The position numbers and the translations under genes were made by a program. A DNA stretch of 64,000 bases from Bacteroidota bacterium (GTDB taxonomy: Bacteria > Bacteroidota > Ignavibacteria > UBA10030 > UBA8401): contig JBMOHT010000003.1 in assembly GCA_049317705.1 (NCBI GenBank), positions 165-64,164 of the forward strand. Direction: 5' to 3'. Shown here one piece after another: positions 15,223 to 32,492 of this stretch. A model generated the notes under the pieces. It worked only from the letters and a program-made list of their open reading frames with translations, made no database searches and was not told where the DNA came from. Numbering within the stretch: position 1 is the first letter of the stretch; each line of letters starts with the position of its first letter.

Positions 15223-15262
15223 AAAGCAGAAATCATGCACTGATTTCTGCTTTCGTGTTTTA
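15223..15262 (+). terminator. Rho-independent terminator after tandem pilin-like genes
   Basis: AAAGCAGAAATCA-TGCAC-TGATTTCTGCTTT then CGTGTTTT. Confidence 0.6.
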
Positions 15263-15342
15263 AACCCTGTTCCATCCTGTTTGCTCAGTTGATTTTGAGT
15301 AGTGGTGATTGTATCTTTACATCTACAAGAGGAAAAATATCT

Positions 15343-16710: not shown

Positions 16711-16731
16711 TTGTCCTTTAAAGGATAAACC

Positions 16732-18519
16732 ATGGCAGATATAGATATCACGGATAAGATAGGATATACGCTTCTCAAAAAGGGGATCATCGATTATGAG
16801 ACCCTCGAAAAGTCCTTGCGTATCAAAGAATCCGAAGCGACCAAAAAAGAACGCCGGAATCTCGGACAGATCCTTGTGTCTGAATTCAGTGCGGATCATG
16901 ATGCTGTATTCCGTGAAGTGGCGAACCTCTATGCGTTTCGCGAGATCTATATCGCTGACGAGAATATCGAAAAAGGCAGGATCGAATTCATCCGGAAACT
17001 GATCGATGGTCTTCCGGAAGGGAATCGTGAGATGCTCATTCAGACGAAGATGCTGCCGCTCAAATTCGACGAGAAGCAGCCGGACAAACTGATCATTATC
17101 TCGGCTGATCCGACGGACAGGAACATTCCGCTGATCTCCCGAAATTTCAACGTAAAAAAATATGAGGTCACGTACTGCCGGTTGAAGGACCTGCAGAGTC
17201 TCATTGAACAAGTGATCCCGCCGCAGAACGAATTCCTGAAACTGCTTGAGGATAACCACATCAGTGTTGAGACCGGCGATGAAGAAGCGAATGTCGATGA
17301 AGATGAACTGAATGCCGAGATCAACAAGAGCGCATTGGCAAATCTGTTTGAAGGTGCTCTTGTCGAAGCGGTGCGGTCCGGAGTGAGCGACGTTCATATT
17401 GTTGCTGCAGAAGGAAAGAGAACGAATATCCTGTTCCGTGTTGACGGTAATTTGAAACTCTGGCACTGCCAGGAAGGTACTATGCCGGAAGCGGTAATGG
17501 CGGTGGTGAAAGACCGGACGAAGAATGTGGACAGATTCGAACGCGAAATGTCGCAGGACGGATTCATTCAGCGCGTTGTCGATGGTCACCAGCTCCGTTT
17601 TCGTGTCTCGATCATGCCGATCGTTACAACGGAATTCAAGAACAAATTCGAATCGGTCGTTATCCGCGTGTTGGATGACCGGAAAGTGATCACCGATCTG
17701 AACAAGCTCGGTCTTCAAGGACCGGCGAGAGGCTTCTTCTACAAAGCCATCGAAAAACCGCAAGGGATCATTATTCTGACAGGTCCGACCGGATCCGGAA
17801 AATCTACGACACTGATTGCTGCGCTCTATCAAGTGATCGACCCCACAGTGAATGTATTGACGATCGAAGAGCCTGTGGAATATATCATTAAAGGTGCCCG
17901 TCAGTTGAAGATCGGACCGAAGATGACCTTTGAACAATCCATCCGCGGTATTCTCCGTCATGATCCGGACATCGTGCTCGTCGGTGAAATGCGCGATAAG
18001 ATCACCGCCGAGACCGCCATTAAACTTGCGAATACCGGTCACTTGGTCTTTTCTACACTGCATACGAACGATGCACCCAGTGCTGTTGCCCGTTTGTATA
18101 AGATGGGTATCGAGCCATTCCTTATCGCCTATGCCATCAACATTATCGTCGCCCAGCGTCTTATCCGTACATTGTGCAAGATATGCAAATCGCCGATCGA
18201 CGAAAATGAAAAACCCGATCTGCTGAAGTTTGGATTCAGCGAAGAGGATGTGAAAAATCATACCTTTTACAAGGCGGTGGGATGCGATAAGTGCAACGGC
18301 GGATACAAAGGACGTGCTGCTATCCACGAAGCGCTGTATTTTACGAAAGCGATCAAGGATATCGTATTGAATGCCGGTGATAAAGTTGATGAGAATGCCA
18401 TCCGTGATCAGGCTTCGAAGGACGGAATGTGGACGCTGCGCCGCTCAGGCATGGAACGTATGAAGGAGGGATCCACATCTCTGGAAGAGGTCATTTCTTC
18501 GACCGTTGAAGATGAGTAG
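16732..18519 (+). CDS. pilB: Type IV pilus assembly / T2SS ATPase (PilB/GspE family)
   Basis: N-terminal GSPII_E-N-like domain, Walker A GPTGSGKSTT, Asp/His boxes, tetracysteine CKIC...CDKC zinc motif; 595 aa. Confidence 0.9.
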   Translation: MADIDITDKIGYTLLKKGIIDYETLEKSLRIKESEATKKERRNLGQILVSEFSADHDAVFREVANLYAFREIYIADENIEKGRIEFIRKLIDGLPEGNREMLIQTKMLPLKFDEKQPDKLIIISADPTDRNIPLISRNFNVKKYEVTYCRLKDLQSLIEQVIPPQNEFLKLLEDNHISVETGDEEANVDEDELNAEINKSALANLFEGALVEAVRSGVSDVHIVAAEGKRTNILFRVDGNLKLWHCQEGTMPEAVMAVVKDRTKNVDRFEREMSQDGFIQRVVDGHQLRFRVSIMPIVTTEFKNKFESVVIRVLDDRKVITDLNKLGLQGPARGFFYKAIEKPQGIIILTGPTGSGKSTTLIAALYQVIDPTVNVLTIEEPVEYIIKGARQLKIGPKMTFEQSIRGILRHDPDIVLVGEMRDKITAETAIKLANTGHLVFSTLHTNDAPSAVARLYKMGIEPFLIAYAINIIVAQRLIRTLCKICKSPIDENEKPDLLKFGFSEEDVKNHTFYKAVGCDKCNGGYKGRAAIHEALYFTKAIKDIVLNAGDKVDENAIRDQASKDGMWTLRRSGMERMKEGSTSLEEVISSTVEDE

Positions 18520-18688
18520 GGAACATTGAAGAATATTCAGTTCCTATCACGGAATAGTTCCTCTAATTTTCTAATTTTTGAGTGATATGATTCGGTATGG
18601 ATATTGAATATATTTGTATCGCATTGTTCTGCGACACATGCGCATTGTCTTCATGACAGTATCTTTGCAATAATTACACAGCAGTATT

Positions 18689-19216
18689 ATGGGATTAGGT
18701 CAGACATTATTGACGATCATGGGTTTGATCCTGATGGGGAGGTTGATTCTTTCCATCAACAGGACCACTTTGGATACCGGGTTCACCAAGGATATGGCGG
18801 AGTACCGCATCACCGGGACATCATTAGGTACTTCAATGCTCGAAAAAGCAAGTAATCTTGCCTTCGATGAAAAGAGTGTCGACGCCGCGATACTTGTTGT
18901 TAGCGGTTTCACGGTGAATGGATCATTAGGAAAAGATGCCGGTGAAACAACGGAAATCACCTTTGATGATATTGATGATTATCATAATTACGTATCCGTC
19001 GATACACTCTCTACTTCTGCAACATTCAAGTCCCGCGTTACGGTCCAATATATCTCTGTTGCCGCCAATGTGATCTCGGTTTCGGCAACACAACAATATG
19101 CCAAGATGCTGACTGTTGATGTGACGAGCGATTATCTTATTGATTACTCGGTCTCACCGCCTCGTCCGGATACACTGCGGTTCAAAGAAATTTTCAGTTA
19201 TTGGTATTTTCGTTGA
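18689..19216 (+). CDS. Minor pilin-like protein (N-terminal hydrophobic helix)
   Basis: 175 aa, MG + hydrophobic N-terminal helix, position within pilus cluster; no homology recognised. Confidence 0.35.
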   Translation: MGLGQTLLTIMGLILMGRLILSINRTTLDTGFTKDMAEYRITGTSLGTSMLEKASNLAFDEKSVDAAILVVSGFTVNGSLGKDAGETTEITFDDIDDYHNYVSVDTLSTSATFKSRVTVQYISVAANVISVSATQQYAKMLTVDVTSDYLIDYSVSPPRPDTLRFKEIFSYWYFR

Positions 19217-19236
19217 GGGACGTGTAAAGGAGTTCT

Positions 19237-19884
19237 ATGGGCTCGCAAACAATCTTAGATCTGATCGCTTCAACGATGGTATTCAGTTCATTACTGTTGA
19301 TGGCAATGCGGTTGAATGCATCGGTCTCATCGAATCTTTTTGCCTACAAAGGTGACCTCATCGTTCAGCAGAATCTTGTTGAGATCGTGAAACTTCTGGA
19401 ATATGATTTCCGGAAGATCGGCTACTGTAAAGATCCTTCAAAGATCCCCGATCCCACCAAAGCCATTCGATACGCTGATTCCATACGCATAAAATTCTAT
19501 ACGGACCTTGCGTCTTCCGCGAATCCATACGGCGATGGAATTGTCGATTCATTGGATTATTATATGGGTTCATTTGCGTCAGGAACTCCTAATCCATTAG
19601 ATCGATTGATATTTCGTGTTGAGAATAATGCAACACCTATTGGTGTTGATCTTGGAGTGACCACATTCAATTTGAAGTATTACGACGCAAATAAAGTCGA
19701 GTTGACCTATCCGATCACTAATTACGGCGCAATTGCAACACTGCAGATCACGATCCAATGTCAGAATCTGGCTGCAGTGAGCGTCTCTCAATATGCCGGT
19801 AGATTTGATTCATTGTCACTCGGATATCAATCAGCATATTGGCGGCAGGTTCGGTTGGTCGCTCGTAATTTGAGGAATCGTTAG
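19237..19884 (+). CDS. Minor pilin/pseudopilin-like protein
   Basis: 215 aa, MGSQTILDLIASTMVF... N-terminus (acidic residue Asp at +5 if cleaved after Ser3; +6 if after Gly2), AAGGAG RBS. Confidence 0.4.
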   Translation: MGSQTILDLIASTMVFSSLLLMAMRLNASVSSNLFAYKGDLIVQQNLVEIVKLLEYDFRKIGYCKDPSKIPDPTKAIRYADSIRIKFYTDLASSANPYGDGIVDSLDYYMGSFASGTPNPLDRLIFRVENNATPIGVDLGVTTFNLKYYDANKVELTYPITNYGAIATLQITIQCQNLAAVSVSQYAGRFDSLSLGYQSAYWRQVRLVARNLRNR

Positions 19885-19901
19885 GACGGAAAGGAGAACG
19901 A

Positions 19902-21086
19902 ATGGGACGCGCAGCAATATATATGATCATCGGTTTCAGCACGATCTTCCTTTTTGTCGGGAAGAATATGACCGATGTGAGTGTTCAGTCACTCGACAAT
20001 GCTCTGACCTATTACGAAGGTTCGCAACGATATAATATCGCGGGTGCCGGTGCAGGATTGGCATGCACGCAGCTTTTCCTCGATAAAAATTGGAGGACTG
20101 GTTATTCCAATGTTGATTTTAATTATGGACGATTTACGGTTACTGTCGCCGACACAACCCTTCAGCGTGTGAAGATCATTTCAACGGGAACGTATCAAAA
20201 TACCAGTAATACGGTGATCGTGATCCTTCAGCCAAGTTCATTCTCAAAATTCGCGTATTTTTCTGATAACGAACCTTCGACCATCTTTTGGCAGTCAGGT
20301 GATACAGTATACGGACCGTACCACAGCAATACAAAATTATATTCATCAGGTTCACCGGTATTTAATGGTAAGGTGACAACGAGAACCGGAAAAAGCGGCG
20401 GATCGCCGAAATTCAACGGCGGTTATGAGACCGGTGTGAGTATGCCGCTGCCGTCGGACTTGGCTCCGACCAAGGATTCGGCTATTTCACGGGGAAGATA
20501 CTTGGCGACCATTGATACTGTATGGGCGACATTCAATGCCGATGGGACAATTACTGTCAAAGTTGGTGCGGCAGCTCCAACAACTACAGCATTGACCACA
20601 TATGCTCCTAATGGGGTCATAACATACGAGGGTGCAGTTCTAAGAATTAAGGGAACGGTTTCCGGCCAAGTGAGTATCTCAACAATTACCAATGGTTCCG
20701 GCAAAGGGGGAAAGGTTTTTATTGACGACGATATAAAGTATAAGACCAATCCTCGGTCAAATCCTTCATCAACTGATCTATTAGGCATTATTGCTACAAA
20801 AGAAATTCTGGTTGCGAACACTACCGCCAATAATTCAACAGGGGTTGACATTCAGGCCACGTTATACTCGCAAACGAAAGGATTAGGAGCGGAAAATATC
20901 ACTTCCGGCGGAATGAAAGGATCAATACGGCTTCTTGGCGGAACAACGCAAGGCGAACGACAAATTGTGCAATCATCCGGAAATGGATATCTAAAAAGCT
21001 ATTATTACGATGACCGTTTAATGGGTATGTCGCCCCCCGGTTTCCCTTTGACCGGCGGATTTGAGATCGTCTCCTGGCTTGAATAA
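19902..21086 (+). CDS. Large minor pilin / pilus-associated protein (possible tip/priming subunit)
   Basis: 394 aa, MGRAAIYMIIGFSTIFLFV N-terminal helix then Ser/Thr/Gly-rich beta region; AAGGAG RBS. Confidence 0.35.
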   Translation: MGRAAIYMIIGFSTIFLFVGKNMTDVSVQSLDNALTYYEGSQRYNIAGAGAGLACTQLFLDKNWRTGYSNVDFNYGRFTVTVADTTLQRVKIISTGTYQNTSNTVIVILQPSSFSKFAYFSDNEPSTIFWQSGDTVYGPYHSNTKLYSSGSPVFNGKVTTRTGKSGGSPKFNGGYETGVSMPLPSDLAPTKDSAISRGRYLATIDTVWATFNADGTITVKVGAAAPTTTALTTYAPNGVITYEGAVLRIKGTVSGQVSISTITNGSGKGGKVFIDDDIKYKTNPRSNPSSTDLLGIIATKEILVANTTANNSTGVDIQATLYSQTKGLGAENITSGGMKGSIRLLGGTTQGERQIVQSSGNGYLKSYYYDDRLMGMSPPGFPLTGGFEIVSWLE

Positions 21087-21222: not shown

Positions 21223-22482
21223 ATGCACGCTGCTCCGACAGCATCATTGGTCATTCCTACCGAAATTGTTGAGAAGGCTCGAACTATTCTCAACCAGGTC
21301 ATTTCTCAAATTCCATCATCAACACAAGGACTTGAACGGCAGATCTTTATCGGCGATTTCGTTGAGAAACTCCCAATTGAGAACAGGCAGATGCTGAGGG
21401 CATTCGTTGAAAGTCTTCTCTTGAGAATGCAATTGATCAACGCATCTGATATTGATTTCGGCGGTTTTGGCGGACACGGGAAGGTGTGGTACAGGATATT
21501 CGGAGCAAAAAAACCTGATCCGACACTTGATCAATTATCGGTGGACGATACCAATATCCTTATTCAATCTCTGATCTCGTCTCGTCAGCGGCAATATCTC
21601 TATGAAATGAAGAATCTCGATTTTTCTTTCATGATCCTCGACGGCGACAAGATGAATCGGTACCGCGCGGACGCGTACATGGATCTTGATCAGCTCGCAC
21701 TGAATATGCGCGCGATCAATGCCACTGTTCGTCCTTACAAAAGTCTTGAACTGCATCCGAATGTAACGAAGATCGTCAGTCTTGCACACACAAAAGAGGG
21801 GATGATCCTGATCACCGGTATAACGGGGTCAGGAAAGAGTACGACACTTGATGCAATGATCGACCTGAACAATCACACAGTGGATGGTCACATCTGTATC
21901 GTTGCATCGCCGATCGAGTACGTTCATAAATCCGACCGCTGTATCGTTCGTCACCGTGAGGTCGGCCGCGATGTGCTTTCATTCAAGGATGGAGCGATCC
22001 AGGCATTGCGTCAGGATCCGGATATCATTATGATCGGTGAAATGCGTGACCCAGAAACGATCATGACCGGATTGGAAATTACGGACAGCGGTCACAAAGT
22101 ATTCTCGACCCTTCATACGGCATCGGCGGTGGAAAGTATCGATCGTATCATCGGTGAAGTTCCTCATGTGGAGCAGGACCGTGTACGGATGCGGTTTGCG
22201 GATGTCTGCAAAATGGTCCTCTCACAGAAACTGATCCCGTCGCTGGACGGAAAACGTGTCGCTGCCCGTGAGATCATGATCATGAATCCTTCGGTGCGCG
22301 CCGCGATCAAGAACGGCAACACCGGAGAGATCTATCAAATGATCCAGGAATCAGGGGAGATCGGGATGCAGACGATGGAGCAGGACCTGAAGAAATTGTA
22401 TCAGCAGAAGAAGATCTCCATGGAAAATGCGATGAACTACGCCAATAATAAAAAACGGATGCAGCAAATCATCAACACGTAA
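21223..22482 (+). CDS. pilT: Twitching-motility-type retraction ATPase (PilT family) with ~60-aa N-terminal extension
   Basis: Walker A GITGSGKSTTL, IMIGEMRD, TLHTASAVESIDRI and SVRAAIKNGNTGEIYQMI (AIRNLIRE-like) PilT signatures; no tetracysteine motif. Confidence 0.8.
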   Translation: MHAAPTASLVIPTEIVEKARTILNQVISQIPSSTQGLERQIFIGDFVEKLPIENRQMLRAFVESLLLRMQLINASDIDFGGFGGHGKVWYRIFGAKKPDPTLDQLSVDDTNILIQSLISSRQRQYLYEMKNLDFSFMILDGDKMNRYRADAYMDLDQLALNMRAINATVRPYKSLELHPNVTKIVSLAHTKEGMILITGITGSGKSTTLDAMIDLNNHTVDGHICIVASPIEYVHKSDRCIVRHREVGRDVLSFKDGAIQALRQDPDIIMIGEMRDPETIMTGLEITDSGHKVFSTLHTASAVESIDRIIGEVPHVEQDRVRMRFADVCKMVLSQKLIPSLDGKRVAAREIMIMNPSVRAAIKNGNTGEIYQMIQESGEIGMQTMEQDLKKLYQQKKISMENAMNYANNKKRMQQIINT

Positions 22483-22487
22483 TTATT

Positions 22488-24050
22488 ATGCCATATAAAA
22501 AAGGTGAAGGTAAAACCGTATTAAGCATGTTCGTGGACGGACTGGATGTGAAATTCGTCCATCTTTCCATGAAGAATAAACGGATTTATCTGCATGATGT
22601 AGTGACGGTGAACCTTGTCAAGCGGCTTGAAGAGCGTGCCGGCGGCGAGATGAATGCGGCTTCAGAGAACTTCGATCTGATGGATAATATCGACAGCGGG
22701 ATGCCGAAGGATGAATTTGCGGAAGGGGAAGGCGGCGCGTCGAACGGGGAAGTGATGATCGGTCTGTTGTCTGAGTATCCCACGGCGTTGTATGAGTTTG
22801 TCTATTCTATCTCTGAACCGAATGTGTACTATCAGCAGTTCGAGGATAACTTCGGATTGTCCGGCCTAAAATTGAAACGCAAACTCGTCGATGAATTGTC
22901 AGCGACACGTTCAGTGAAACCCAGTATCGATTCGGTCTCATTCATTCCCGCAGCAGAAGGACAGATCCTCTCGATCATTCGTGAGGGCGGACTTGGACTG
23001 CTGGATGTCATTGCGAGCGTTCAGGATTTCCTCGACAAACGGGTACCGCGTGTTCAATTCATCGAAACATCGGATGTTTCGTTGATCAATTTTGTGCGTG
23101 TGAATTACGAGATCGGCGAATCCGAGATATCGATCATTGTGTATGTCGGCTCTGAATTCAGCCGCCTGATCTTTATGAAGGGGCAGGATTTCTTCCACTT
23201 TGCTCCTGTGATCAGCGAAGGCCGACTGACCCCCAATATTGAGAATACGATATATTCCAGGATCCTGCTGGAACAGGATAGTGCCGGTATTCTAAGGATC
23301 GACCGGATATTCCTTGCCGGTGAGGCGAATAAGATCGATCTGAAACAATTCCTCTCGCCTCAGTTCGCCGAATCACCTATCGAATATGTCTCGTCTTCCA
23401 ATCTGGATGTTTCGGAGTTCCAGGACAGCCCGGAAGCGATCATCTCTGAATATGCGATCCCGATATCTTCGGCGATGCGTGCACTCGAACCGAAGAATCA
23501 TAATTATTACCATGTTGACCTTCTGCCCATCAGCTTCCGCGAAGGACAGAAGATCTTCAAGCTTGCGTGGCACGGATATCTGCTGCTCACGCTCATCTTC
23601 GTCTCCACGCTGTTCTTCACGAACCGGTTCGCCACATTGAACGATGACGTGCGTCGGTCCAAGAATGAACTGCAGAAGAAGCAGGAACAGCTTGCAGAGA
23701 ATCAGCGCCTGCAGTTGATCCTGGACAGCCTGGTCACGCAGAATGCAAGTTATGAATCGGCGTTGATCGTGTATGATTCGTTGATGCCCAATTATAATCG
23801 CTGGAGTAAAGTTTTCAATCATCTCTCCGGAAGTGTTGAGAGTGTGAATTCCGTTTGGATCAAAGATATGGTGGCGAAGGGTGACTCGGGAATGGAACTT
23901 CAGGGATATACGGTCTTTCGTCAGCGGATCCCCCGAATAGCGAATATGTTCGAGAAAGCGACACTGCAGACCGTTGATATCGAGAATATCCGCGGTAAGG
24001 ATGTCTATAAATTCGTGATCTCCGTCAAAAATTTTGACACAGATAAATAG
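22488..24050 (+). CDS. PilM-like actin-fold domain fused to PilN-like TM/coiled-coil domain
   Basis: 520 aa; N-terminal ~360 aa resembles PilM/FtsA-type, then one TM segment (LLLTLIFVSTLFF) and coiled coil; assignment by architecture. Confidence 0.45.
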   Translation: MPYKKGEGKTVLSMFVDGLDVKFVHLSMKNKRIYLHDVVTVNLVKRLEERAGGEMNAASENFDLMDNIDSGMPKDEFAEGEGGASNGEVMIGLLSEYPTALYEFVYSISEPNVYYQQFEDNFGLSGLKLKRKLVDELSATRSVKPSIDSVSFIPAAEGQILSIIREGGLGLLDVIASVQDFLDKRVPRVQFIETSDVSLINFVRVNYEIGESEISIIVYVGSEFSRLIFMKGQDFFHFAPVISEGRLTPNIENTIYSRILLEQDSAGILRIDRIFLAGEANKIDLKQFLSPQFAESPIEYVSSSNLDVSEFQDSPEAIISEYAIPISSAMRALEPKNHNYYHVDLLPISFREGQKIFKLAWHGYLLLTLIFVSTLFFTNRFATLNDDVRRSKNELQKKQEQLAENQRLQLILDSLVTQNASYESALIVYDSLMPNYNRWSKVFNHLSGSVESVNSVWIKDMVAKGDSGMELQGYTVFRQRIPRIANMFEKATLQTVDIENIRGKDVYKFVISVKNFDTDK

Positions 24051-24057: not shown

Positions 24058-24960
24058 GTGTCATATAAAATCAGAAATAGTATCGTTCTCGCCGTGCTGA
24101 TCCTGCTGGTTATCATTATCGGCACGTACGTAACGGTATTCTATCAGCCGAAGAAGATCCAGCAGAATCTGAAGGAGTCAAAGAAGATCTCCGCTCAGCT
24201 GCAGGACAATACAGAGCAGATGAATGCGATCGAGCAGAATCAATTGAAGCTGCGTGAAACGATGCATCGGTGGAATAATCGTATCAAAGAGATCTCCGAA
24301 TCGGATGTGTCATCGCAGACGTATGGCTATCTCAGCGATATCATTGATGAGAGCGGAGCTCAGCAACTGAAGATGAATTTAGCACTTACCGGTACTGTCG
24401 AGGGCTCGACGATCGGATATAATACTTACAAGATCAGCGGTGTATCCGAGTTCCCCAATATCTTCCGATTCCTTTGGCTGTTGGAGAACGGTCGAAAATT
24501 ATATAAGATCACGAATATCTCCTTCCGCAGCGATGAGGTCGGGGCAGATTCCATGGAGGTCCCGCGGATCGCATTACAGTATGAGATGGAGATCAATGCA
24601 TACTTCACCAAAGAGAAGACCTTGGGTATGCAGGTGATGCGTCCTGATTCTACTCCTCAGCCCATCATGTCCAATCCGTTCCAGCCGAGCATCCTTCGGA
24701 TGAAACCTGCAAATGTCCGTAACCTCGTTGACGTAGACCGGATCTCGGTGAAAGCGACTGCGAACGGCAAGGCACTGGTCATGACGGATGACGGACGACT
24801 GCTCACGCTGCAGATCGGAGACGAGGTCTATCTTGGGAAGGTTTCCAACATCATGCCGAAAGAAGGTTCCATTGAATTTATGCTGAACAATGGTGGAATC
24901 GCGCAGATAGTCCGAAAACAAATACAATTCGAGAAAACAGAGAAGGACGCAGTACAATGA
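24058..24960 (+). CDS. PilO/PilP-like inner-membrane pilus alignment protein
   Basis: GTG start; N-terminal TM + Gln-rich coiled coil, C-terminal beta domain; 300 aa. Confidence 0.4.
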   Translation: MSYKIRNSIVLAVLILLVIIIGTYVTVFYQPKKIQQNLKESKKISAQLQDNTEQMNAIEQNQLKLRETMHRWNNRIKEISESDVSSQTYGYLSDIIDESGAQQLKMNLALTGTVEGSTIGYNTYKISGVSEFPNIFRFLWLLENGRKLYKITNISFRSDEVGADSMEVPRIALQYEMEINAYFTKEKTLGMQVMRPDSTPQPIMSNPFQPSILRMKPANVRNLVDVDRISVKATANGKALVMTDDGRLLTLQIGDEVYLGKVSNIMPKEGSIEFMLNNGGIAQIVRKQIQFEKTEKDAVQ

Positions 24961-26261
24961 AACGATTGATCCTGTTCACAGCCTGTATCGTGCTGATGTC
25001 GATGAATGCGGCAGCACAAAATAACCGTGAGCGTCGTTTGCTGCTGAATGATTACGTCTCACCGGAAGAGCTCGTTTCAATGTCGAAGTCACTTCCGTTC
25101 GACAAAGCTGTGCTTTTATTCAGCGACTTCAGTAAAAAATACATGAATAAGATCATTGTGGATGTGAGCAACAATAAGAAGCCGATCGGTGTGGACATTG
25201 AGAACACATATTGGTATCAGGCATTCGAAGGCGTGCTGCGAACCAATGGATTATGGTACGATGAACGCGAAGAATTCTTTTATGTCTATTCACAGAAAGA
25301 TTCATTAAAGAACGCCGGAGGCTCGAATGGTTCTTCCTCGAATCCATTAACAGCTGCTCAGATCGACTCGACAGGAAAGGTCCTATTACGTCAGCGTGAT
25401 GTGAAGATCTCAACGGTCTTCTTCACGGTCGATGTCGTTAAATCATTGAATGCCGGCATCAACTGGAGTTTCTTCTATTCCGGTGATACGACTCAGGCAG
25501 GTTCCAGACCGACCCAATTTGGGTCCGACTTCTACGGCGGATTCAAGGATCCGAAAGAAACCCAATCCAGCGGTTCCTCCTCATCGTCGAGTTCGTCTTC
25601 CGCGATCAGCCCCGGATTTTACAGCAAGTTCATCCCTGCGATCTCGTTCACGAATATCACTGCGCTGATCAATTTCTTCCAGAACAATCAGCTTGGCGAT
25701 GTCCTCTCCGGTCCTCAGATCGTTGTGTCTTCCGGGAAACAGGGAAAGATCCAGGTAGGTCAGGATATCTTCATTACCACCAGGGATATCGCAGGGAACA
25801 CGATCCAGCAGCCGTTGTCATCCGGTATCATTATCGATGTGAAACCGACTGTGTATGATGAGAATGATATCAAGTTCATCAACCTTGATGTGAAGGCGGA
25901 ACGGAGCACCGCGAGTCCGGGACCGGTGATCAATAAATCATCGGCATCGACATTCAACGTGCTCTATGACGGTGAAGAAATGGTGATGGGCGGATTGTAT
26001 ACAAATGTTGAATCTTCCGAACGGGGAGGGGTGCCCTTCTTAAAGGATCTGCCGTGGTGGGTATTCGGTTTAAAATACCTTTTCGGATATGATAAACAGA
26101 CCACCTCGACTCAGGAACTTATCATTCTGCTGAAAGCTGAATTGATACCGACGTTGGAAGAGCGTGTCGCAACAGCTTCTCAGCGTAAAGGGGCCAACCC
26201 GATCGAACAGGTCCGTACAAAAAATGCTGCTGAGATCGAACGTTTCAAACCCAAAAAATAG
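24957..26261 (+). CDS. pilQ: Outer-membrane secretin (PilQ/GspD family, minimal 434-aa form)
   Basis: Signal peptide; C-terminal secretin signature VMGGLYTN...GGVPFLKDLPWWVFGLKYLFG...TQELIILLKAELIP; poly-Ser linker; ATGA-coupled to upstream gene. Confidence 0.75.
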   Translation: MKRLILFTACIVLMSMNAAAQNNRERRLLLNDYVSPEELVSMSKSLPFDKAVLLFSDFSKKYMNKIIVDVSNNKKPIGVDIENTYWYQAFEGVLRTNGLWYDEREEFFYVYSQKDSLKNAGGSNGSSSNPLTAAQIDSTGKVLLRQRDVKISTVFFTVDVVKSLNAGINWSFFYSGDTTQAGSRPTQFGSDFYGGFKDPKETQSSGSSSSSSSSSAISPGFYSKFIPAISFTNITALINFFQNNQLGDVLSGPQIVVSSGKQGKIQVGQDIFITTRDIAGNTIQQPLSSGIIIDVKPTVYDENDIKFINLDVKAERSTASPGPVINKSSASTFNVLYDGEEMVMGGLYTNVESSERGGVPFLKDLPWWVFGLKYLFGYDKQTTSTQELIILLKAELIPTLEERVATASQRKGANPIEQVRTKNAAEIERFKPKK

Positions 26262-26353
26262 ATCGTGCTATAGATCATCTTTTTCGTCATAACGTTTCAG
26301 TACGTTATGACGATATATTTTTTTAGAGAGTCCCATCTAACTACAGGTATGTT

Positions 26354-29300
26354 ATGAAGTATCTCATGAGAGTTTTGACAAGTGCTGTTCTTATCCTGGT
26401 ATTGGGGATATTCTCCTGTCAGGATCCCAATGCTCCAACGTCTGATTTTACCGTAACGGTGACAGGAACAGCGGTCAATAAAAAAGGAGCGACACAGGAC
26501 AGTGTGATCGTTGTTCTCGACAATCCTTTCCGAAGGGACACCACGAAATCGGATGGGACCTTCTCGTATACATTCACTTCCTCTGAGAAGAACGAAGTAA
26601 CAGCGACATTCAAATTTACACACCGCAATCTTGCATTCCGCGAGACAACGCTTACCCGGACATACAGTTCTTCAAAAAAAACAATCGCATTCGGTGAAGT
26701 GACCCTCAACGGAGTTGACTCGAGTGCGGACAATCAGGACCCGACCCGGCCTTCGTCCCGTGCCGGAGTAGTAACATTTGTCAGCTCTACATTCAAAACT
26801 ATTTCCATCCGCGGTGCCGGCGGTAATGAAGTGACCAACCTGACATTCGAAGTTCGCGACAGTCTCGGCACACCGGTGGATGATAAGAATAAGATCTCCG
26901 TATCATTCAAACTCATCACAAAACCGGATATTGCTGTCGAATTGAATCGCACCAATGCAACCACCAATTCTATCGGTCAGGTTGTCGTTCAACTGACATC
27001 CGGTGATAAAGCCGGTATCGCTCAGGTGCAGGCGGTCACGGCAGTGAAGAATTTGGTCGACACCACGAAATTTGATACGCTCAAATCTCAGATCATTTCC
27101 GTAGCGATCGCAGGCGGACTTCCCGCGATAAGCCATTTTACTCTCGGGTCGGAAAAATTGAATGTCCCCGGTTTGGTACGGTTCGGAATGAAGAATACCA
27201 TCACGGCGATCGTTGCCGATACTTTCGGAAATCCTGTGCAGAAGGGAACGATCGTTTCATTTACAACGAACGGCGGTATCATCAAGAATTCTGCAGAAAC
27301 GTCAGAAGATGGTTTGGTCTCTGTTGACCTGATCACAAGTTACCCATATCCGCCGAATGGTTTTGCGACCGTCACGGCGCAGGTAGGAACTCCGGGTATT
27401 CTGGCAACCAAATCAAATGATGGCGACGCAGCAAACAGTGCTTCGATGGATGAAGCAGTCGTGATCAAGGGATTACGTAATAAAAAGAATCCTCAGACCA
27501 GAAAAGGTTCTTCGCTTATGCTTAAAACCGCAGGCGGAACGACCTTCTCAAAATCCATCAATGTACTCTTCACCGGTGCACCAAGGATCACATCGAATGA
27601 TTCTACGTTCTTCGTACCGCCGCTTGGAACAAAACAGATCCAGTTCACAGTGGATGATATTAACGGCAACCCGATGGTCGGCGGAACGAGTATAAAAGTG
27701 ACCGGTGTGGGTCTTGATACGACCGGAGCTGTCCTTACCGGAGACCTCGTGAGCGATGTGAAGGATTCACACGATAAGTCCTATACGAAATTCAACATCA
27801 GTGTCGCTGACAAACGGACGAAGAATTTAAGCGCCAATATCCCGATCACGATCAATATCGAAGTTGCCGGTGATAATGGGAACATAAAAAAATCATTCAC
27901 CGGTGTCCTTTCCTCCATTGTGTCAGGTGACAGCGGAAAAGTCGGCACTGTCTCTCTTGTGAACAGTTCTACGGATTCTATCGTAGCATCCGGTGCAGGT
28001 TCACCGAATTCTGTGACCGTTCAGGCTAAAGTGCTTACGGTCGTTGGGCAGCCTTCCGCATCCATTCCGGTCAACTTTACGATCGTGAAGAATGTGAATG
28101 GAGGAGAATATCTTTCGTCTCAGGTCGCATTCACCAATGCCGCCGGGATAGCAACGACGACGTTATACAGCGGTATCCGTGCCGGCCTTGTGCAGGTGCA
28201 GGCATCAGTGAAAAAAGATTCATTGGCGATCTCCTCCGATCTGAAGAATATCTATATCAAGACCGGAAAAGTATCATCGATATTCCTTGTGAGCGTCTCA
28301 GCACCGATCATCTCTGTGAAAGGGGGCGGCGGCAATGAGAATAGTGTGATGGTATTCGAAGGTCGCGATTCTCTCGGGAATGCCATTGATGGCTCCAATC
28401 AAGCATCGATCACATTCTTATTGAAGGGGGATACATCCGGAGCGCGTATCAACCCAACAATTATTGGTACTGATCCCAACACGGGGAGAGTTACGGCAAG
28501 CCTTTCGTCGGGTAATCAATCAGGAATCATTCAAGTGGTGGCTCAGTCCGGATCAGTACAATCTCGAGCAGTGCAGATCTCTGTCTCAGGTGGACTACCG
28601 GCACAATCACAGTTCACATTGAATATGCCGAAAAAGAATTATTCGATCCTGACCGACAAAACGACCATCCCATCGGTGACCGTTGGTGATGCACAGGGGA
28701 ATCCGGTGAGCCCGAATACCTTGGTGAATTTCAAAACGAACGGCGGTTTGATCAGTTCAGCTGCCTTTACCAATGCTGATGGTTCAGCATCAACAACACT
28801 CCAGATCGTCAATCCTCAGCCTCCCGGAGGCGTTGCAACAATCGAAGCAAAGACATTCGGTGCAAACGGAGTGATCATTCGTGATACACAGACGGTGGTC
28901 TTCTCACGCGAGGCTGTGATCACCGAAGTCGGCGGTCCATTCAATAATTTCGAGATCGAGGACGGTTTATCGAAAACATTCCAATATACCGTAGCCGATG
29001 TCAACGGAAATCCACTTTCACAGGGAAATGTGATCACAGTGGAATCATTCGGACTCGCATCAGGGAATATCGTCATTTCCGGTGATATCAATGTTTCCTT
29101 GAATGATTCAAAGATCCAAGGTATCGGAACGACTCAATTCTCATTCACTGCTCGCGATACCGTGAAAGATGAAGGGCAGGGACCAAAACCACTAGGATTT
29201 AAGATCAAAGTAACCGGTCCCAATACGATTGGTACCTTGGTGTCGACATTCAACGGCACGTTGAAAGGCGGCGCCGGCGTCGGGAATGAAGGCAGTGTGG

Positions 29301-31711
29301 CTTCTGTCTCGTATTCCAAATCATCCAAAGATACTATTTTTGTTGCGAATGCCGGGATTCCGACAACCGACACTATTACATTCGTTGCACGCAATCTGAA
29401 TCAATTGCCGGTAAAAGGTGCAGCAGTTCAATTCTTCTTTGAGCAGGCACAAAATGCCAGTGAGTTCCTGAGTCCATCGTATGCAGTATCAGATGATTCC
29501 GGAAGGGTAAAAGTTGCCGTTCATAGCGGCATCAAAGCCGGAGTTCTGAAGGTTATGGCGAAAGTAACCGCCGGTAATTCCGTTATTTCATCACTGCCGG
29601 TGAATGTCTTTATTAAGACAGGACCGCTAAAATCTATTGCATTGATCAATGTCGATAAGAAGGAGATCTCTGTTCGCGGTGTCGGCGGTGAAGAAAATGC
29701 AGTCATCACCTATGAAGCACGAGATCTTCTGGGTAATCCTCTTGACTTTGCAAACCAAACAAAATTGTTCTTTAAAATGAAAGGTGTTGTCGGGTTCGAT
29801 GAAGAAGTGAAACCGGACAGTGCGTTGACAGATCCGTTCAGCGGCAGGGCTACAGTTACGGTCACGAGCGGTACCCGTTCAACGGTACTTCAATTGATCG
29901 CTCAAAACGCTGATTCCTCCATTAAATCATCTCCGGTGCCGATCGTCGTGCATGGCGGTTTTGCGGTGGATTCGCTGTTCATTTTCAAGAATGTCAAACG
30001 TAATATCTCCATCTACGAGCAAAATGCATCTGAATTTAAAATGCAGGTCGGTGATAGATACGGCAATCCGGTAAAACCGGGAACTGCGGTGTATTTTGAG
30101 ACTGAAGCCGGCATTATCGGAGCTTCTGCCTTTACCGATGCAGGAGGGAATGTCTCTACGAGTTTCAGCTCCGTCCTTGATAATTCCCGATTGGGATCAA
30201 AGGTCTTTAAAGCAAGCACGGTTGGACAAAGTGGATTGATCCAAAAATCCATCAATGTGTTGATGTCAGGCCGTCCTGCTATAACTGTAGTGAATTTACC
30301 GACAGACTCATTGACACTCTTCGATGGGACCTCTACAACGATCAATTACCGAATAGAGGATATCCTCGGTAATCCGATCTCATCGGGACACGGGTATCAG
30401 ATCTTTGTGGATGGTTCAGTTTCAAGCCAGATCACAATTACCGGTGATGTTTCCGGAGTTCTACCCGATACAGATGACAAAGTAAATGGGACGAAATTCA
30501 GTTTTGTGGTGTCGGACTTTGGTGTCAATAGCGGTACGGGAGGTAATTTTAAGATCCGTATCGTCGTTACAGGAACGACTGGTACAACGGTTAAAACGAT
30601 CAATGGAACGTTGCTTGCTCCGGCGAATATCGTTGTTCCACCTTCAGCCAGAGTTGCCGCTTCCATCCGATTGGAAAGTACTTCCCGAAACGATATCTCG
30701 ATCACCGGTGTAGGCGGAACGGAGAATGCCACTATCACTTATCAGGTGCTCGATTCCGTCGGTGCTCCTGTTGATCGGCAGAACAAAGCTACGGTCGCCT
30801 ATAAAGTGAATTTCAATCCGAACGGATTCACATTAGGAGGAACACCTCCGAAGATCCTTCCGCTGATCGACAGCACAGATGAGAATGGAAAGAGCAGAGT
30901 ATCGATCACCAGCGGAACTCAAGCCGGTGTGGTGCAGATCGAAGCGACCATTACAATGACTAATCCTGTCAGGACGATCAAATCGCAGCCGGTGACAATT
31001 TCGATCAACTCCGGCTTTGCAGATCAGGGACATTTTACACTCTCTCCGAACAGATATAATTTCCCGGGTCTTCAGAGATCATTCTTACCCATGAGCGTTA
31101 CGGTCCAGATCGGGGATAAATACAGCAATCCTGTGAAACAAGGAACTGTTGTATATTTCAATTCAGCGAATGGTATCATTCAGACACAGCAAGGATTGAC
31201 CGATAACAATGGATTCGTTACGATGACACTATTCTCAGGTAATCCTCTACCGTTATCACCGAAGCTTGCATCCGGATTGACGGACGGTTACTCACGAGTG
31301 TACGCACGAACGATCGGAAGGGATAGCGCGAACATACTGGATTCAGTTGATATTCTCTGGACGGGGAGCCCGATTGTAACAAAGACGGATGCGATCAATT
31401 CGTACACCATTGCGAATGGCGGAACAGCAGGACCGTTCTCCTTCACCGTGCTGGATTACCTTGGTCATCCAATGTCTGAAGGGACATCGATCGCTGTAGA
31501 AGCGACCGGATTAGAGGTCAGCGGTAACGCAAACATTACCATGCCTGATACAAAATCAACCGGTGCGGGGCTTACCTCATTTACGTTCACAGTGAAGGAT
31601 GCTAACTTGACTGATACCGAGCCGCCGGCGGCAAGCCTGATCACGGTCATTGTAACACATCCGGTTTATGGGACATACAAACGTGTGATCGCATCAGGAA
31701 CAGTGGATTAA
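26354..31711 (+). CDS. Giant lipoprotein with bacterial Ig-like (Big/invasin-type) domain super-repeats (1785 aa)
   Basis: Lipobox LGIFSC; four ~350-500-aa modules each containing recurring blocks IS(I/V)(R/K)G.GG.EN..(I/M).(F/Y)E.RD.LG.P.D, GGLPA.S.FTL and V.F.T.GG.I; no T9SS-type C-terminal domain recognised. Confidence 0.7.
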   Translation: MKYLMRVLTSAVLILVLGIFSCQDPNAPTSDFTVTVTGTAVNKKGATQDSVIVVLDNPFRRDTTKSDGTFSYTFTSSEKNEVTATFKFTHRNLAFRETTLTRTYSSSKKTIAFGEVTLNGVDSSADNQDPTRPSSRAGVVTFVSSTFKTISIRGAGGNEVTNLTFEVRDSLGTPVDDKNKISVSFKLITKPDIAVELNRTNATTNSIGQVVVQLTSGDKAGIAQVQAVTAVKNLVDTTKFDTLKSQIISVAIAGGLPAISHFTLGSEKLNVPGLVRFGMKNTITAIVADTFGNPVQKGTIVSFTTNGGIIKNSAETSEDGLVSVDLITSYPYPPNGFATVTAQVGTPGILATKSNDGDAANSASMDEAVVIKGLRNKKNPQTRKGSSLMLKTAGGTTFSKSINVLFTGAPRITSNDSTFFVPPLGTKQIQFTVDDINGNPMVGGTSIKVTGVGLDTTGAVLTGDLVSDVKDSHDKSYTKFNISVADKRTKNLSANIPITINIEVAGDNGNIKKSFTGVLSSIVSGDSGKVGTVSLVNSSTDSIVASGAGSPNSVTVQAKVLTVVGQPSASIPVNFTIVKNVNGGEYLSSQVAFTNAAGIATTTLYSGIRAGLVQVQASVKKDSLAISSDLKNIYIKTGKVSSIFLVSVSAPIISVKGGGGNENSVMVFEGRDSLGNAIDGSNQASITFLLKGDTSGARINPTIIGTDPNTGRVTASLSSGNQSGIIQVVAQSGSVQSRAVQISVSGGLPAQSQFTLNMPKKNYSILTDKTTIPSVTVGDAQGNPVSPNTLVNFKTNGGLISSAAFTNADGSASTTLQIVNPQPPGGVATIEAKTFGANGVIIRDTQTVVFSREAVITEVGGPFNNFEIEDGLSKTFQYTVADVNGNPLSQGNVITVESFGLASGNIVISGDINVSLNDSKIQGIGTTQFSFTARDTVKDEGQGPKPLGFKIKVTGPNTIGTLVSTFNGTLKGGAGVGNEGSVASVSYSKSSKDTIFVANAGIPTTDTITFVARNLNQLPVKGAAVQFFFEQAQNASEFLSPSYAVSDDSGRVKVAVHSGIKAGVLKVMAKVTAGNSVISSLPVNVFIKTGPLKSIALINVDKKEISVRGVGGEENAVITYEARDLLGNPLDFANQTKLFFKMKGVVGFDEEVKPDSALTDPFSGRATVTVTSGTRSTVLQLIAQNADSSIKSSPVPIVVHGGFAVDSLFIFKNVKRNISIYEQNASEFKMQVGDRYGNPVKPGTAVYFETEAGIIGASAFTDAGGNVSTSFSSVLDNSRLGSKVFKASTVGQSGLIQKSINVLMSGRPAITVVNLPTDSLTLFDGTSTTINYRIEDILGNPISSGHGYQIFVDGSVSSQITITGDVSGVLPDTDDKVNGTKFSFVVSDFGVNSGTGGNFKIRIVVTGTTGTTVKTINGTLLAPANIVVPPSARVAASIRLESTSRNDISITGVGGTENATITYQVLDSVGAPVDRQNKATVAYKVNFNPNGFTLGGTPPKILPLIDSTDENGKSRVSITSGTQAGVVQIEATITMTNPVRTIKSQPVTISINSGFADQGHFTLSPNRYNFPGLQRSFLPMSVTVQIGDKYSNPVKQGTVVYFNSANGIIQTQQGLTDNNGFVTMTLFSGNPLPLSPKLASGLTDGYSRVYARTIGRDSANILDSVDILWTGSPIVTKTDAINSYTIANGGTAGPFSFTVLDYLGHPMSEGTSIAVEATGLEVSGNANITMPDTKSTGAGLTSFTFTVKDANLTDTEPPAASLITVIVTHPVYGTYKRVIASGTVD

Positions 31712-31735
31712 CGTTTAGGAATGCAATGTACCATC

Positions 31736-31768
31736 GAGCGTCCTGCGTGAGCAGGACGTTCGTGTTTT
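31736..31768. terminator. Bidirectional hairpin terminator between convergent giant-lipoprotein and UDG genes
   Basis: GAGCGTCCTGC-GTGA-GCAGGACGTTC followed by GTTTT. Confidence 0.45.
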
Positions 31769-32492
31769 AAAGGTATCGTTTTGCAGTGCGGAAGATGGAA
31801 TTGAACATTGGTTCCGTCAATGTACCGGTGAACGTATTCTGCTGGCTGGGGTGATAACTTCCGATGAGGATGATATTCGAAGTGATCGGCTCGATCACAC
31901 CGTGAGAGAATTTTGGACGAGAAGACCGCTCTGTCCAACCCAGTGATCTCATGCAATCGAATGCTGTATCAAAACCGGTCTTACCGAGTCCGATCACAAC
32001 GCGGAGGTCTTTCAGCAGTAGGAATTCATCGAGGATGTAACGACGACATTTTATTAGTTCATCCGGCAGGGGTTTATTGTCGGGAGGAGCACAACGGCAT
32101 GCGGCAGTGATATAGCTATTGGTCAATGATAGTCCGTCATCCTTTTGGATTGAATCAGGCTGATTCGCAAATCCCGCTTTATACAGTGCACGAAACAGCC
32201 ATTTTCCGCTCTCATCACCCGTGAACATCCGGCCTGTTCTGTTCGCGCCATGCGCTGCAGGTGCAAGTCCAACCAATAACAGCTGAGCCTTCGGGTCGCC
32301 AAATCCGGGGACGGGTCTACCCCAGTATTCGCAGTCCATGAATCGCTTCGTCTTCATCTGAGCGACAGTCTCACGCCATTCGACGAGACGCGGGCAATCG
32401 CGACAGGAAATTATCTTTCGGTGAAGGGCAGGGAGTGATCTTGTCATGGGATCGAAAGAAGGGATGTGGAAGACCCTGTCAAGGTCAAGCAT
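31767..32492 (-). CDS. Uracil-DNA glycosylase, family 4/5 (Fe-S cluster type)
   Basis: GLAPAAHGANRTGRMFTGD motif, four Cys ligands (CRDCPRL..., CRCAPP...C). Confidence 0.75.
   Translation of the reverse strand: MLDLDRVFHIPSFDPMTRSLPALHRKIISCRDCPRLVEWRETVAQMKTKRFMDCEYWGRPVPGFGDPKAQLLLVGLAPAAHGANRTGRMFTGDESGKWLFRALYKAGFANQPDSIQKDDGLSLTNSYITAACRCAPPDNKPLPDELIKCRRYILDEFLLLKDLRVVIGLGKTGFDTAFDCMRSLGWTERSSRPKFSHGVIEPITSNIILIGSYHPSQQNTFTGTLTEPMFNSIFRTAKRYL

Follow-up and report, generated by a model that had tools for sequence, protein, structure and literature searches.

Directly behind a secretin gene, on the same strand and starting 92 nt past its stop codon, the window (the whole 64,000-nucleotide stretch of DNA analysed) carries the gene for a 1785-aa lipoprotein (Table 1). 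A first-pass annotation of this DNA had recognised the reading frame with its lipobox, LGIFSC, and its adjacency to the upstream gene, and both were upheld by our open reading frame and signal peptide analyses; the gap had been given as 93 nt, and the name pilQ for the upstream gene was too specific, as the scores of this secretin against GspD, PilQ and MshL were close together, the one for GspD slightly above that for PilQ and the highest of the three. A convergent next gene and a hairpin terminator had also been described correctly: the gene belongs to the UDG family, and the hairpin, with a 12-bp stem and a T-run, is placed after the lipoprotein stop codon, between the convergent genes. A further terminator-like hairpin (z = -4.5), overlooked previously, lies inside the 92-nt gap between secretin and lipoprotein.

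Table 1. Coordinates of the filament operon, the lipoprotein gene and its domains, and flanking hairpins in the window.
Feature	Position	Strand	Details
Remainder of filament operon	14309..21086	+	Two pilin-like, GspF/PilC-like, PilB/GspE-like and three minor-pilin-like ORFs
Two pilin-like ORFs	14309-14719, 14786-15199	+	
GspF/PilC-like protein	15289-16710	+	
PilB/GspE-like ATPase	16732-18519	+	
Three minor-pilin-like ORFs	18689-21086	+	
PilT/PilU-family ATPase	21223..22482	+	419 aa; TIGR01420 at 320.2 bits (cutoff 319.1)
PilM+PilN-like fusion	22488..24050	+	520 aa; GspL-like layout; weak assignment
PilO/GspM-like bitopic protein	24058..24960	+	300 aa; PilO 3jc8_Oa, E 0.0014
Secretin	24957..26261	+	434 aa; short N-terminal region and poly-Ser linker
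Terminator-like hairpin in gap	26284..26323	+	Hairpin 26284-26313, then TATATTTTTT; 12-bp perfect stem, 5 GC pairs, 6-nt loop
Lipoprotein gene	26354..31711	+	1785 aa
Lipoprotein signal peptide	26354..26419	+	aa 1-22; ends in lipobox G-I-F-S-C22
N-terminal beta-sandwich	26420..26758	+	aa 23-135; transthyretin/CarboxypepD_reg type
Module 1	26762..27916	+	aa 137-521; D1 (Big_1/Invasin_D3), D2 (Big_1), insert, D3
Extra single Big_1 after module 1	27947..28261	+	aa 532-636; Big_1 4e-08
Module 2	28274..29278	+	aa 641-975; D1-D2-D3
Extra single Big_1 after module 2	29303..29623	+	aa 984-1090
Module 3	29630..30628	+	aa 1093-1425; D1-D2-D3
Module 4 (C-terminal)	30659..31708	+	aa 1436-1785; module HMM reaches last residue
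Intrinsic-terminator-like hairpin	31735..31771	+	Hairpin 31735-31762, with T-run to 31771; 12 bp, 8 GC pairs

The genes before the lipoprotein would encode a filament machine, and the block PilT-PilMN-PilO-secretin-lipoprotein, with PilT first, is conserved in order. The 520-aa PilMN-like protein matched the Amuc_1101 family at 2.4e-05, far under the cutoff, and returned no matches in a PDB sequence search; the 300-aa PilO-like protein has a conserved C-terminal beta-rich segment that may be PilP/GspC-HR-like. The assembly ATPase scored higher for PilB than for GspE, both below cutoff, the pilins are non-canonical with a two-residue MG leader, and no prepilin peptidase was recognisable in the locus. 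Judged by these predicted components, the machine is of hybrid character among type IV filament systems: it combines an ATPase of the PilT family with a secretin that leans slightly towards GspD and with pilins of a non-canonical type. Classical type II secretion systems (T2SS) are without a PilT-family ATPase.

The lipobox cysteine, Cys22, is the sole cysteine of the whole 1785-aa protein and is kept in 243 of the 265 relatives examined, and the residues following it, C-Q-D-P-N, fit the family pattern C-[EQK]-[DNS]-P-[TN]. The mature lipoprotein has a mass of ~184 kDa and a pI of 8.75 and is enriched in Thr, Ser, Val and Gly; the NCBI gene model (P0001) takes the second Met as its start and gives 1781 aa. 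Family members are named in sources only as ‘hypothetical’ or ‘Ig-like domain-containing’, and our literature searches, including those for Ignavibacteria and Melioribacter, returned general remarks on pil genes and no published description of the family.

Pfam searches of the whole protein, as the first-pass annotation had proposed, revealed Big_1 (8 stretches, 2.3e-37) and Invasin_D3 (10 stretches, 4.3e-33). Whole-protein self-BLASTP gave the identity match only; segment-versus-segment BLASTP together with a module HMM delimited four super-repeats, starting near aa 150, 653, 1105 and 1448, which are 29-37% identical pairwise over 290-500 aa. With E-values of 1e-22 to 1e-53, this similarity can be regarded as far beyond chance. 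Each super-repeat comprises three Ig-like beta-sandwiches, two of them Big_1/Invasin_D3 domains and one without a Pfam family, and module 1 has a disordered insert of ~50 aa (aa 347-396) between D2 and D3. The tandem duplication of a three-domain Big/invasin-like unit, proposed from the letters of the sequence, was thus borne out by Pfam, segment BLASTP, the module HMM and a structural model; of the three motif blocks on which it had been based, two do occur once per repeat, but GGLPA appears in exact form just in the first two repeats, its counterparts being GGFAV in repeat 3 and SGFAD in repeat 4. The extra Big_1 domains behind modules 1 and 2 had not been noted before. The lipoprotein is therefore a rod-like string of ~15 tandem beta-sandwiches: the N-terminal domain, four three-domain modules and two extra Big_1 domains.

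An AlphaFold2 model of aa 1-640 was all-beta, with pLDDT >90 for D1-D3, and a Foldseek search with this 640-aa model placed invasin (1cwv) among the top matches (E 4e-11, 16% identity). Matches to alpha-2-macroglobulin chains, with TM-scores <=0.21, were of a generic kind between beta-sandwich strings, and that class was rejected: there is no CxEQ thioester motif, and the only cysteine is that of the lipobox. The N-terminal domain, whose strands were modelled at aa 32-117, shows the lowest conservation of all folded domains (on average 45% identical to its counterparts in the four-module orthologues). Taken alone, the window copy gave no significant match in a Pfam search; homologues of the domain carry precomputed PF13620/PF13715 matches, and a SusC homologue, 9hfj_A, is matched in its N-terminal domain by the family profile (E 0.002). 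We also considered a specialised third domain or adhesive tip and rejected it, as a model of D3 alone (pLDDT 87) matched generic Ig-like folds only, with TM-scores <=0.63 (chaperone-usher chaperones, SbsC and glycosidase-linked Ig domains), and conservation is even along the rod; comparison of four-module orthologues revealed no hypervariable tip. The 12-stranded beta-barrel of inverse autotransporters is absent, with no barrel family among the Pfam matches and an N-terminus made up of the signal peptide and a ~110-aa beta-sandwich. Nor is there a C-terminal lectin-like cap: the module HMM spans aa 1436-1785, and the last 120 aa gave a weak Big_9 match only. Module 4 extends to the very C-terminus, leaving no space for such a cap or for a T9SS C-terminal domain.

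Several other known classes were tried and set aside. No Por_Secre_tail or C-terminal domain match was found in the whole protein or in its last 120 aa, as would be expected of T9SS cargo; neighbouring genomes do encode Por_Secre_tail proteins. PilP is a ~170-aa lipoprotein with an HR beta-sandwich, encoded upstream of the secretin, and the present gene lies downstream, differs in size and architecture and has no PilP family match. The known pilotins (PulS/AspS and PilF/PilW/Tgl types) were likewise rejected, since the 1785-aa protein is built of Ig-like domains and matched neither pilotin nor TPR families.

The first-pass annotation had also claimed nucleotide-level similarity among the repeats and, with it, a risk of mis-assembly. 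Self-blastn of the gene (word size 11, E<=1e-3) returned the identity match only, Tandem Repeats Finder found nothing, and the longest direct DNA repeats were 20-25 nt at 76-90% identity; without DNA-level similarity among the repeats, and with no DNA repeat >25 nt, the concern is unfounded. Four-module orthologues, 1780-1815 aa long and alike in domain order (42-67% identity), are encoded in eleven independent assemblies, and an identical protein is present in NCBI (P0001). The notion of an assembly artefact behind the repeats or the length of the gene, or of a reading frame that is no real gene, was raised on account of the repeats and gathered no supporting evidence; the short repeats, the independent orthologues and the identical NCBI protein already refute it, and we give it virtually no chance of being right.

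The family comprises 701 cluster representatives at E<=1e-30, with 1-12 modules each. Most secretin-linked relatives have a single module and are ~460-500 aa long, while members of the window's clade have 2-12 modules, and the window protein is a lineage-specific, module-expanded form of the ~460-500-aa single-module lipoprotein. A tree of the modules showed positional orthology between species, with the C-terminal modules of all multi-module relatives forming one clade; on this basis the module duplications are ancient. Tandem paralogues of the lipoprotein occur at two loci (L015 and L017).

Across genomes, the gene keeps its place. In a secretin-anchored survey of Ignavibacteriota-type genomes, a module-bearing lipoprotein reading frame follows the secretin in 59/63 loci, the 63 being those with at least 1.5 kb of downstream sequence; reading frames were counted on the + strand when they began no more than 2.5 kb past the secretin, and nearly all of them lay directly behind it. 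All secretin-linked module reading frames have a lipobox and the N-terminal domain, and the gaps range from -1 to ~240 nt, with overlapping start and stop codons at some loci. When the search was anchored on the lipoprotein instead, six of seven independent relatives (seven of eight places) were found to adjoin a secretin (L001-L007, L088). The genes downstream of the lipoprotein vary (UDG, epimerase, aminotransferase, glycosyltransferase, response regulators), two loci have the minor-pilin trio in inverted orientation, and the order after the secretin persists at secretin identities of only 36-41% as flanking genes turn over. A functional tie to the secretin operon, suspected from the window itself, is thereby strongly supported, and since the gene lies directly after the secretin in most genomes sampled, its product is likely to be an undescribed partner or cargo of the secretin machine. 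A displayed adhesin and a secreted substrate, the two roles put forward in the first-pass annotation, are both candidates. From this gene order it seems that a dedicated Ig-module lipoprotein gene is the last member of most type IV filament operons in the Ignavibacteriota.

The two kinds of observation that the first-pass annotation had named as refuting its reading, an independent promoter and orthologues elsewhere in the genome, were each found in part: a terminator-like hairpin precedes the gene, and one homologue (P0196, at L089) stands alone at an unrelated position with no adjacent secretin. Both are exceptions, and the prevailing pattern is strongly the other way. The gap hairpin also occurs in L001, L019 and L022, with compensatory changes, and is missing from most of the phylum; being confined to the nearest relatives, it is a clade-specific rather than family-wide feature, and it may act as an attenuator or partial terminator. 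Ignavibacterium-like and Calditrichia loci have the machine and lack the lipoprotein gene.

We compared the residues after Cys22 with two published sorting signals. T2SS-dependent lipoproteins of Acinetobacter baumannii carry GGG or ND(N/D) at P2'-P4' and >4 G/S or N/D residues in P1'-P8' (PMC12802150); the window protein departs from this, reading C-Q-D-P-N-A-P-T with 2 N/D residues, an outcome of little weight as such sorting rules are species-specific. The Bacteroidota surface export signal (LES), in which K, Q or S precedes at least two D/E residues at roughly +2 to +5 from the Cys (PMC5080379), was seen in 0/47 distinct post-Cys sequences (60 relatives) of the window's clade, 0/52 (111 relatives) of a Kryptonia-type set and 11/60 from secretin loci. 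As predictors of location, both rules are uninformative for this phylum.

Among the closest known systems, compared by description, is InvL of A. baumannii, a lipoprotein of 492 aa that has Ig domains of invasin-like type, lacks a beta-barrel and depends on the T2SS secretin to reach the surface (PMC9245377). Both are N-terminal lipoproteins with tandem invasin-type Ig domains, the length of InvL is close to that of the ancestral single-module form (~460-500 aa), and the secretin-dependent surface display known for InvL is what gene context leads us to propose for the window protein. InvL differs in having three Ig domains and a C-terminal lectin-like cap, whereas the window protein is capless, with a CarboxypepD_reg-like N-terminal domain and a three-domain module present four times; InvL also has a GGG motif after its Cys and needs GspN (PMC12802150), neither of which was found at the window locus. 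The machines differ too, in that the present one has a PilT-family ATPase. PulA of Klebsiella and SslE of E. coli, which like MtrC and OmcA are T2SS-dependent surface lipoproteins, resemble the window protein as large lipoproteins with a secretin-based, filament-type route (proposed in our case), but are catalytic enzymes, whereas the window protein is Ig-like only and has no recognisable catalytic or binding domain. The PulA and SslE genes lie beside secretion genes. [quoted passage not shown] Leptospira LigA and LigB are surface adhesins, lipoproteins with 12-13 tandem Big_2 domains; they share the lipobox followed by a long bacterial Ig-like string, but differ in using Big_2 rather than Big_1, in lacking a three-domain super-repeat and in being unconnected with any secretin operon. 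The cap and belt proteins of Deinococcus radiodurans, DR_0940 and DR_1364, are, like the window protein, lineage-specific lipoproteins accompanying a type IV filament-type secretin, but were shown by cryo-EM to be parts of the complex (PMC10828601), a membership that is conjectural for the window protein, and lack modular length variation.

Our best explanation, held tentatively and at just under an even chance, is that the lipoprotein forms an outer-membrane-anchored stalk of ~55 nm placed on the cell surface by the adjacent machine, as for InvL and PulA. From its lipobox, domains and genetic linkage we infer a surface location, an export route and an adhesive role: the protein would be exported by Sec and lipidated at Cys22, the adjacent secretin machine would bring it, or accompany it, to the outer face of the outer membrane, and the resulting stalk could serve as an adhesin or spacer acting with a retractile filament, its reach set by module number, which runs from 1 to 12 among relatives. 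Such a range, up to ~130 nm extended, would misfit a fixed periplasmic width and is typical of surface stalks. Several observations count against machine-dependent export of a stalk: the PilT-family ATPase, a component foreign to classical T2SS; the absence of both the A. baumannii motif and the LES from the window protein; the gap hairpin, the stand-alone homologue and the Ignavibacterium-like and Calditrichia loci without the gene; and the even conservation, with neither a hypervariable tip nor a lectin-like cap.

A different role next to the same secretin, which we consider rather unlikely, is that of an accessory subunit (pilotin, belt, cap or collar), with the N-terminal domain docking on the secretin near the membrane and the Ig modules encircling the channel as a ring, cage or crown, either on the periplasmic side or at the surface. 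The single-module form is nearly phylum-wide and fixed immediately 3' of the secretin, the overlapping start and stop codons at some loci suggest stoichiometric co-production, lipobox and N-terminal domain are conserved, the secretin is short, and the N-terminal domain of the family resembles the periplasmic N-terminal domain of SusC-type receptors. Deinococcus radiodurans provides a precedent in its belt and cap, DR_1364 and DR_0940, on the secretin (PMC10828601). However, machines of the Ignavibacterium-like and Calditrichia type do without the gene, so that it is not an indispensable core part; 1-12 modules are hard to reconcile with one fixed complex geometry; tandem paralogues and a stand-alone copy exist; there is no similarity to known pilotin families; and the gap hairpin of the window's clade would lower or uncouple expression relative to the secretin. 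Those same loci lacking the gene, the solitary homologue and the upstream hairpin suit an ordinary Ig-repeat adhesin that would travel by the general FCB lipoprotein pathway, independently of the secretin, and share with the operon only regulation or inherited synteny. Adhesins that join a lipobox to tandem bacterial Ig domains are known, LigA and LigB among them, and acidic or polar residues follow the Cys in many relatives, of LES type in the 11 secretin-locus sequences. We nevertheless judge it unlikely, as the gene order is kept at secretin divergence beyond what neutral synteny predicts, the gaps at many loci are very short or overlapping, and the window's clade lacks the Bacteroidota export signal. 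We regard as a long shot the idea that an undescribed Ignavibacteriota type IV filament machine includes the lipoprotein as an integral component, extracellular or spanning the envelope, with a ring of its lipid-anchored Ig rods crowning or sheathing the filament exit; equally doubtful is the corollary that the N-terminal domain docks on the short secretin and that the 1-12-module length is tuned to the thickness of outer layers. If true, the protein would represent a new class of accessory to the secretin and be neither cargo nor free adhesin.

Returning to the machine-linked readings, the lipoprotein would be either a built-in cargo of the InvL or PulA type or a new accessory subunit. If an accessory, it would extend the short list of lineage-specific secretin partners. 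If a cargo, as in the surface stalk that we favour, it would offer a simple, phylum-wide and genetically linked model for how secretins handle lipid-anchored substrates, an open question. The series of 1-12 modules with positional orthology is a natural experiment on how the length of stalk proteins evolves.

The ORF that follows the secretin gene holds 1785 open codons and begins with the signal peptide MKYLMRVLTSAVLILVLGIFS-C, in keeping with its first-pass annotation as a lipoprotein. The lipobox Cys22 is the sole cysteine of the whole 1785-aa product, which is a Sec/SPII-type lipoprotein precursor. Its deposited twin (P0001, a hypothetical protein from a 'Bacteroidota bacterium' MAG) is identical but starts four codons later.

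Segment-against-segment BLASTP recovered the four super-repeats noticed in the first reading, beginning near residues 150, 653, 1105 and 1448, with pairs sharing 29–37% identity across 290–500 residues (E 1e-22 to 1e-53). Each such module comprises three domains (D1–D2–D3), and an HMM trained on all four of them located one extra first-domain copy after each of modules 1 and 2 (aa 532–636 and 984–1090). The proposed Big/invasin-like make-up was confirmed by Pfam (Big_1, 2e-37, 8 stretches; Invasin_D3, 4e-33, 10 stretches); searched domain by domain, D1 and D2 were Big_1/Invasin_D3 and D3 matched no Pfam family. The motif blocks had been described correctly, except that GGLPA is exact in modules 1 and 2 only. 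An AlphaFold2 model of residues 1–640, for which 44 single-module relatives had been aligned, was all-beta, with D1, D2 and D3 at pLDDT >90 and a disordered insert of ~50 residues in module 1; it resembled strings of Ig or MG domains, invasin (1cwv) being among the best matches. D3 modelled alone (pLDDT 87) matched generic Ig-like sandwiches only. The lipoprotein is a rod-like array of ~15 beta-sandwich domains, in which no catalytic domain, beta-barrel, lectin-like cap or T9SS sorting domain was seen.

In a neighbour-joining tree, modules grouped across species by their place in the protein, whether first, second, third or last (positional orthology), all C-terminal modules formed one clade and recent duplications were few. 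This shows a three-domain unit that was repeated, as had been suggested, but long ago. Such age explains why the nucleotide-level repeat similarity anticipated by the first-pass annotation was not found: self-blastn, TRF and a direct-repeat search gave nothing >25 nt. An artefactual origin of the gene was excluded.

Gene content and scores upstream identify a type IV filament system in which T4aP and T2SS features are mixed; the score of the secretin against GspD slightly exceeds that against PilQ, and the name 'pilQ' is too narrow for it. Between the secretin stop codon and the lipoprotein start lie 92 nt containing a terminator-like hairpin. Only the nearest relatives (loci L001, L019 and L022) share this hairpin, with compensatory changes in its stem; it is absent in most of the phylum and may be an attenuator keeping the dose of the giant lipoprotein below that of the secretin. 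The convergent neighbour and terminator-like hairpin reported 3′ of the gene are both there, this hairpin being the stronger.

Features of the filament-machine operon and neighbouring genes
Feature	Window coordinates	Strand	Remarks
Outer-membrane beta-barrel protein, 1082 aa	5530–8778	+	
Putative SecA, 1025 aa	10915–13992	+	Ends ...CPCGSGKKYKNCHG; directly upstream of pilin genes
Two tandem pilin-like ORFs, 136 and 137 aa	14309–14719, 14786–15199	+	Upstream of lipoprotein gene
GspF/PilC-type platform protein		+	Upstream of lipoprotein gene
PilB/GspE-type ATPase		+	Upstream of lipoprotein gene
Three minor-pilin-like ORFs	18689–21086	+	Upstream of lipoprotein gene
PilT/PilU-family ATPase		+	Upstream of lipoprotein gene; 320.2 bits, cutoff 319.1
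PilM+PilN-like fusion, 520 aa	22488–24050	+	Upstream of lipoprotein gene
PilO/GspM-like protein, 300 aa	24058–24960	+	Upstream of lipoprotein gene
Secretin, 434 aa	24957–26261	+	
Gap hairpin and T-run	26284–26323	+	12-bp perfect stem
Lipoprotein ORF	26354–31711	+	
3′ hairpin	31735–31762		
UDG-family gene			Convergent

Several of these neighbours are themselves unusual. The tandem pilin-like ORFs are paralogous, start MGQQQLLLIILGV with a leader of two residues, lack the G/FTLxE motif and Glu5, and match only ComP_DUS, weakly (E 0.003); the MG start is shared by the minor-pilin-like ORFs. Among the ORFs of the window that were scanned, no prepilin peptidase turned up, and the Melioribacter roseus genome was reported to have pilT, pilQ, pilB and pilC and neither pilA nor pilD (PMC3534657). 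Together these findings suggest that the phylum has pilins of a non-canonical class, or a non-canonical way of processing them. The PilO/GspM-like protein matches PilO 3jc8_Oa in its N-terminal part (E 0.0014), and the strongly conserved motif of its last ~70 residues, GDEVYLGyVtkI..G.iE.tLNkGGI, resembles the PilP/GspC HR domain, so the protein may be a PilO–PilP fusion. The PilM-like N-terminal part and PilN-like transmembrane/coiled-coil part of the 520-aa protein give it a GspL-like fused layout; its sole family match, to Amuc_1101, is weak, and a sequence search of the PDB gave nothing. At 434 aa the secretin is unusually short, and it contains a poly-Ser linker (SSGSSSSSSSSSA). Among solved structures it is closest to GspD chains, with matches reaching into the N3 region; those to PilQ are confined to the secretin core. 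The 1082-aa barrel protein is of the SusC/TonB-dependent receptor type, judging from an N-terminal CarboxypepD_reg domain, a type common to the N-domain of the lipoprotein family, and a weak Plug match.

A first homologue search returned 78 relatives (990–2926 aa, 3–8 full modules, lipobox kept), all from Bacteroidota- or Ignavibacteriales-labelled MAGs. In 5/5 looked up, the lipoprotein gene lay directly 3′ of the secretin, in a shared block (PilT, PilMN-like, PilO-like, secretin, lipoprotein) kept also in loci with other downstream genes or with an inverted minor-pilin trio. When species-representative genomes were scanned with a secretin alignment, counting loci with at least 1.5 kb downstream of the secretin, a module-bearing same-strand ORF followed the secretin in 59 of 63 loci, directly in nearly all, with gaps of −1 to about 240 nt; all of these ORFs opened with a lipobox and the same N-domain, a transthyretin/CarboxypepD_reg-type beta-sandwich. 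This linkage spans deep divergence (secretin identity 36–41%). Three Ignavibacterium-like loci and one Calditrichia locus had no such gene beside the secretin operon. Most of the phylum has a one-module form of about 460–680 aa, including Kryptonia, many Ignavibacteria and MAGs labelled 'Chlorobiaceae' or 'Chitinophagaceae', and multi-module forms are concentrated in the wider clade of the window. Tandem paralogues follow the secretin in two loci, L015 and L017, those of L017 (1207 aa, 11342–14965; 868 aa, 15069–17675) each having their own lipobox and N-domain. Single-module P0196 (480 aa, L089 10001–11443) lies far from any secretin among unrelated genes, cupin/aminotransferase on one side and peptidase M19 on the other. 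Searched with a profile, 1.84 billion cluster representatives yielded 701 family members at E<=1e-30, with 1 to 12 modules, the largest being P0199 (4280 aa, 12 module matches). Distant Big_1 lipoproteins of other lineages (P0069, P0071 and P0072) have at least 6 Gly directly after the lipobox Cys, in line with the 'GGG' motif that is reported to sort T2SS-dependent lipoproteins of A. baumannii (PMC12802150).

Among analogues characterised by experiment, InvL of Acinetobacter baumannii comes closest: this lipoprotein of 492 aa has invasin-like Ig domains, lacks a barrel and depends on the T2SS secretin to arrive at the surface (PMC9245377; PMC12802150). PulA, SslE and MtrC/OmcA are further T2SS-dependent surface lipoproteins, and the Lig lipoproteins of Leptospira are similar in design; by analogy, our lipoprotein would work most like InvL or PulA. 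Inverse autotransporter identity was ruled out because barrel and lectin cap are absent; pilotin, PilP, alpha-2-macroglobulin and T9SS cargo (there is no T9SS sorting domain) were also rejected.

We tentatively propose that the lipoprotein may be transported to the cell surface by, or together with, the adjacent secretin machine, and there act as a stalk or adhesin, anchored by its lipid, with a reach that would depend on module number. Ig-like domains in the invasin rod are ~3.6 nm long, so ~15 domains would extend roughly 55 nm, and relatives ~15 nm to >130 nm. Such a range is unlike a fixed periplasmic width and typical of surface stalks; with the InvL, PulA, SslE and MtrC/OmcA parallels, it favours this proposal. 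It is weakened by the PilT-family ATPase, which is not a T2SS feature, by post-Cys residues that fit neither the T2SS sorting motif, defined in A. baumannii, nor the Bacteroidota export signal, by the hairpin preceding the gene, and by the lineages that do without it. That the lipoprotein is instead a belt, cap or collar of the secretin seems unlikely, though the fixed gene position, the shortness of the secretin and, at some loci, overlapping start and stop codons speak for it, as does the Deinococcus radiodurans secretin complex, into which two lipoproteins are built (PMC10828601); a module number of 1–12, the existence of paralogues and the absence of the gene from some lineages speak against such a structural accessory. 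We consider it rather improbable that the protein is an independently exported surface adhesin having only synteny or regulation in common with the operon.

Literature searches found no description of the family, and sources naming any member call it hypothetical or 'Ig-like domain-containing'. What is new is the super-repeat of three domains, the N-domain of CarboxypepD_reg-like type and the phylum-wide position of the gene at the end of a type IV filament operon. The value lies in this conserved linkage, not in the protein fold, and it makes the relation between lipoprotein and machine directly testable.
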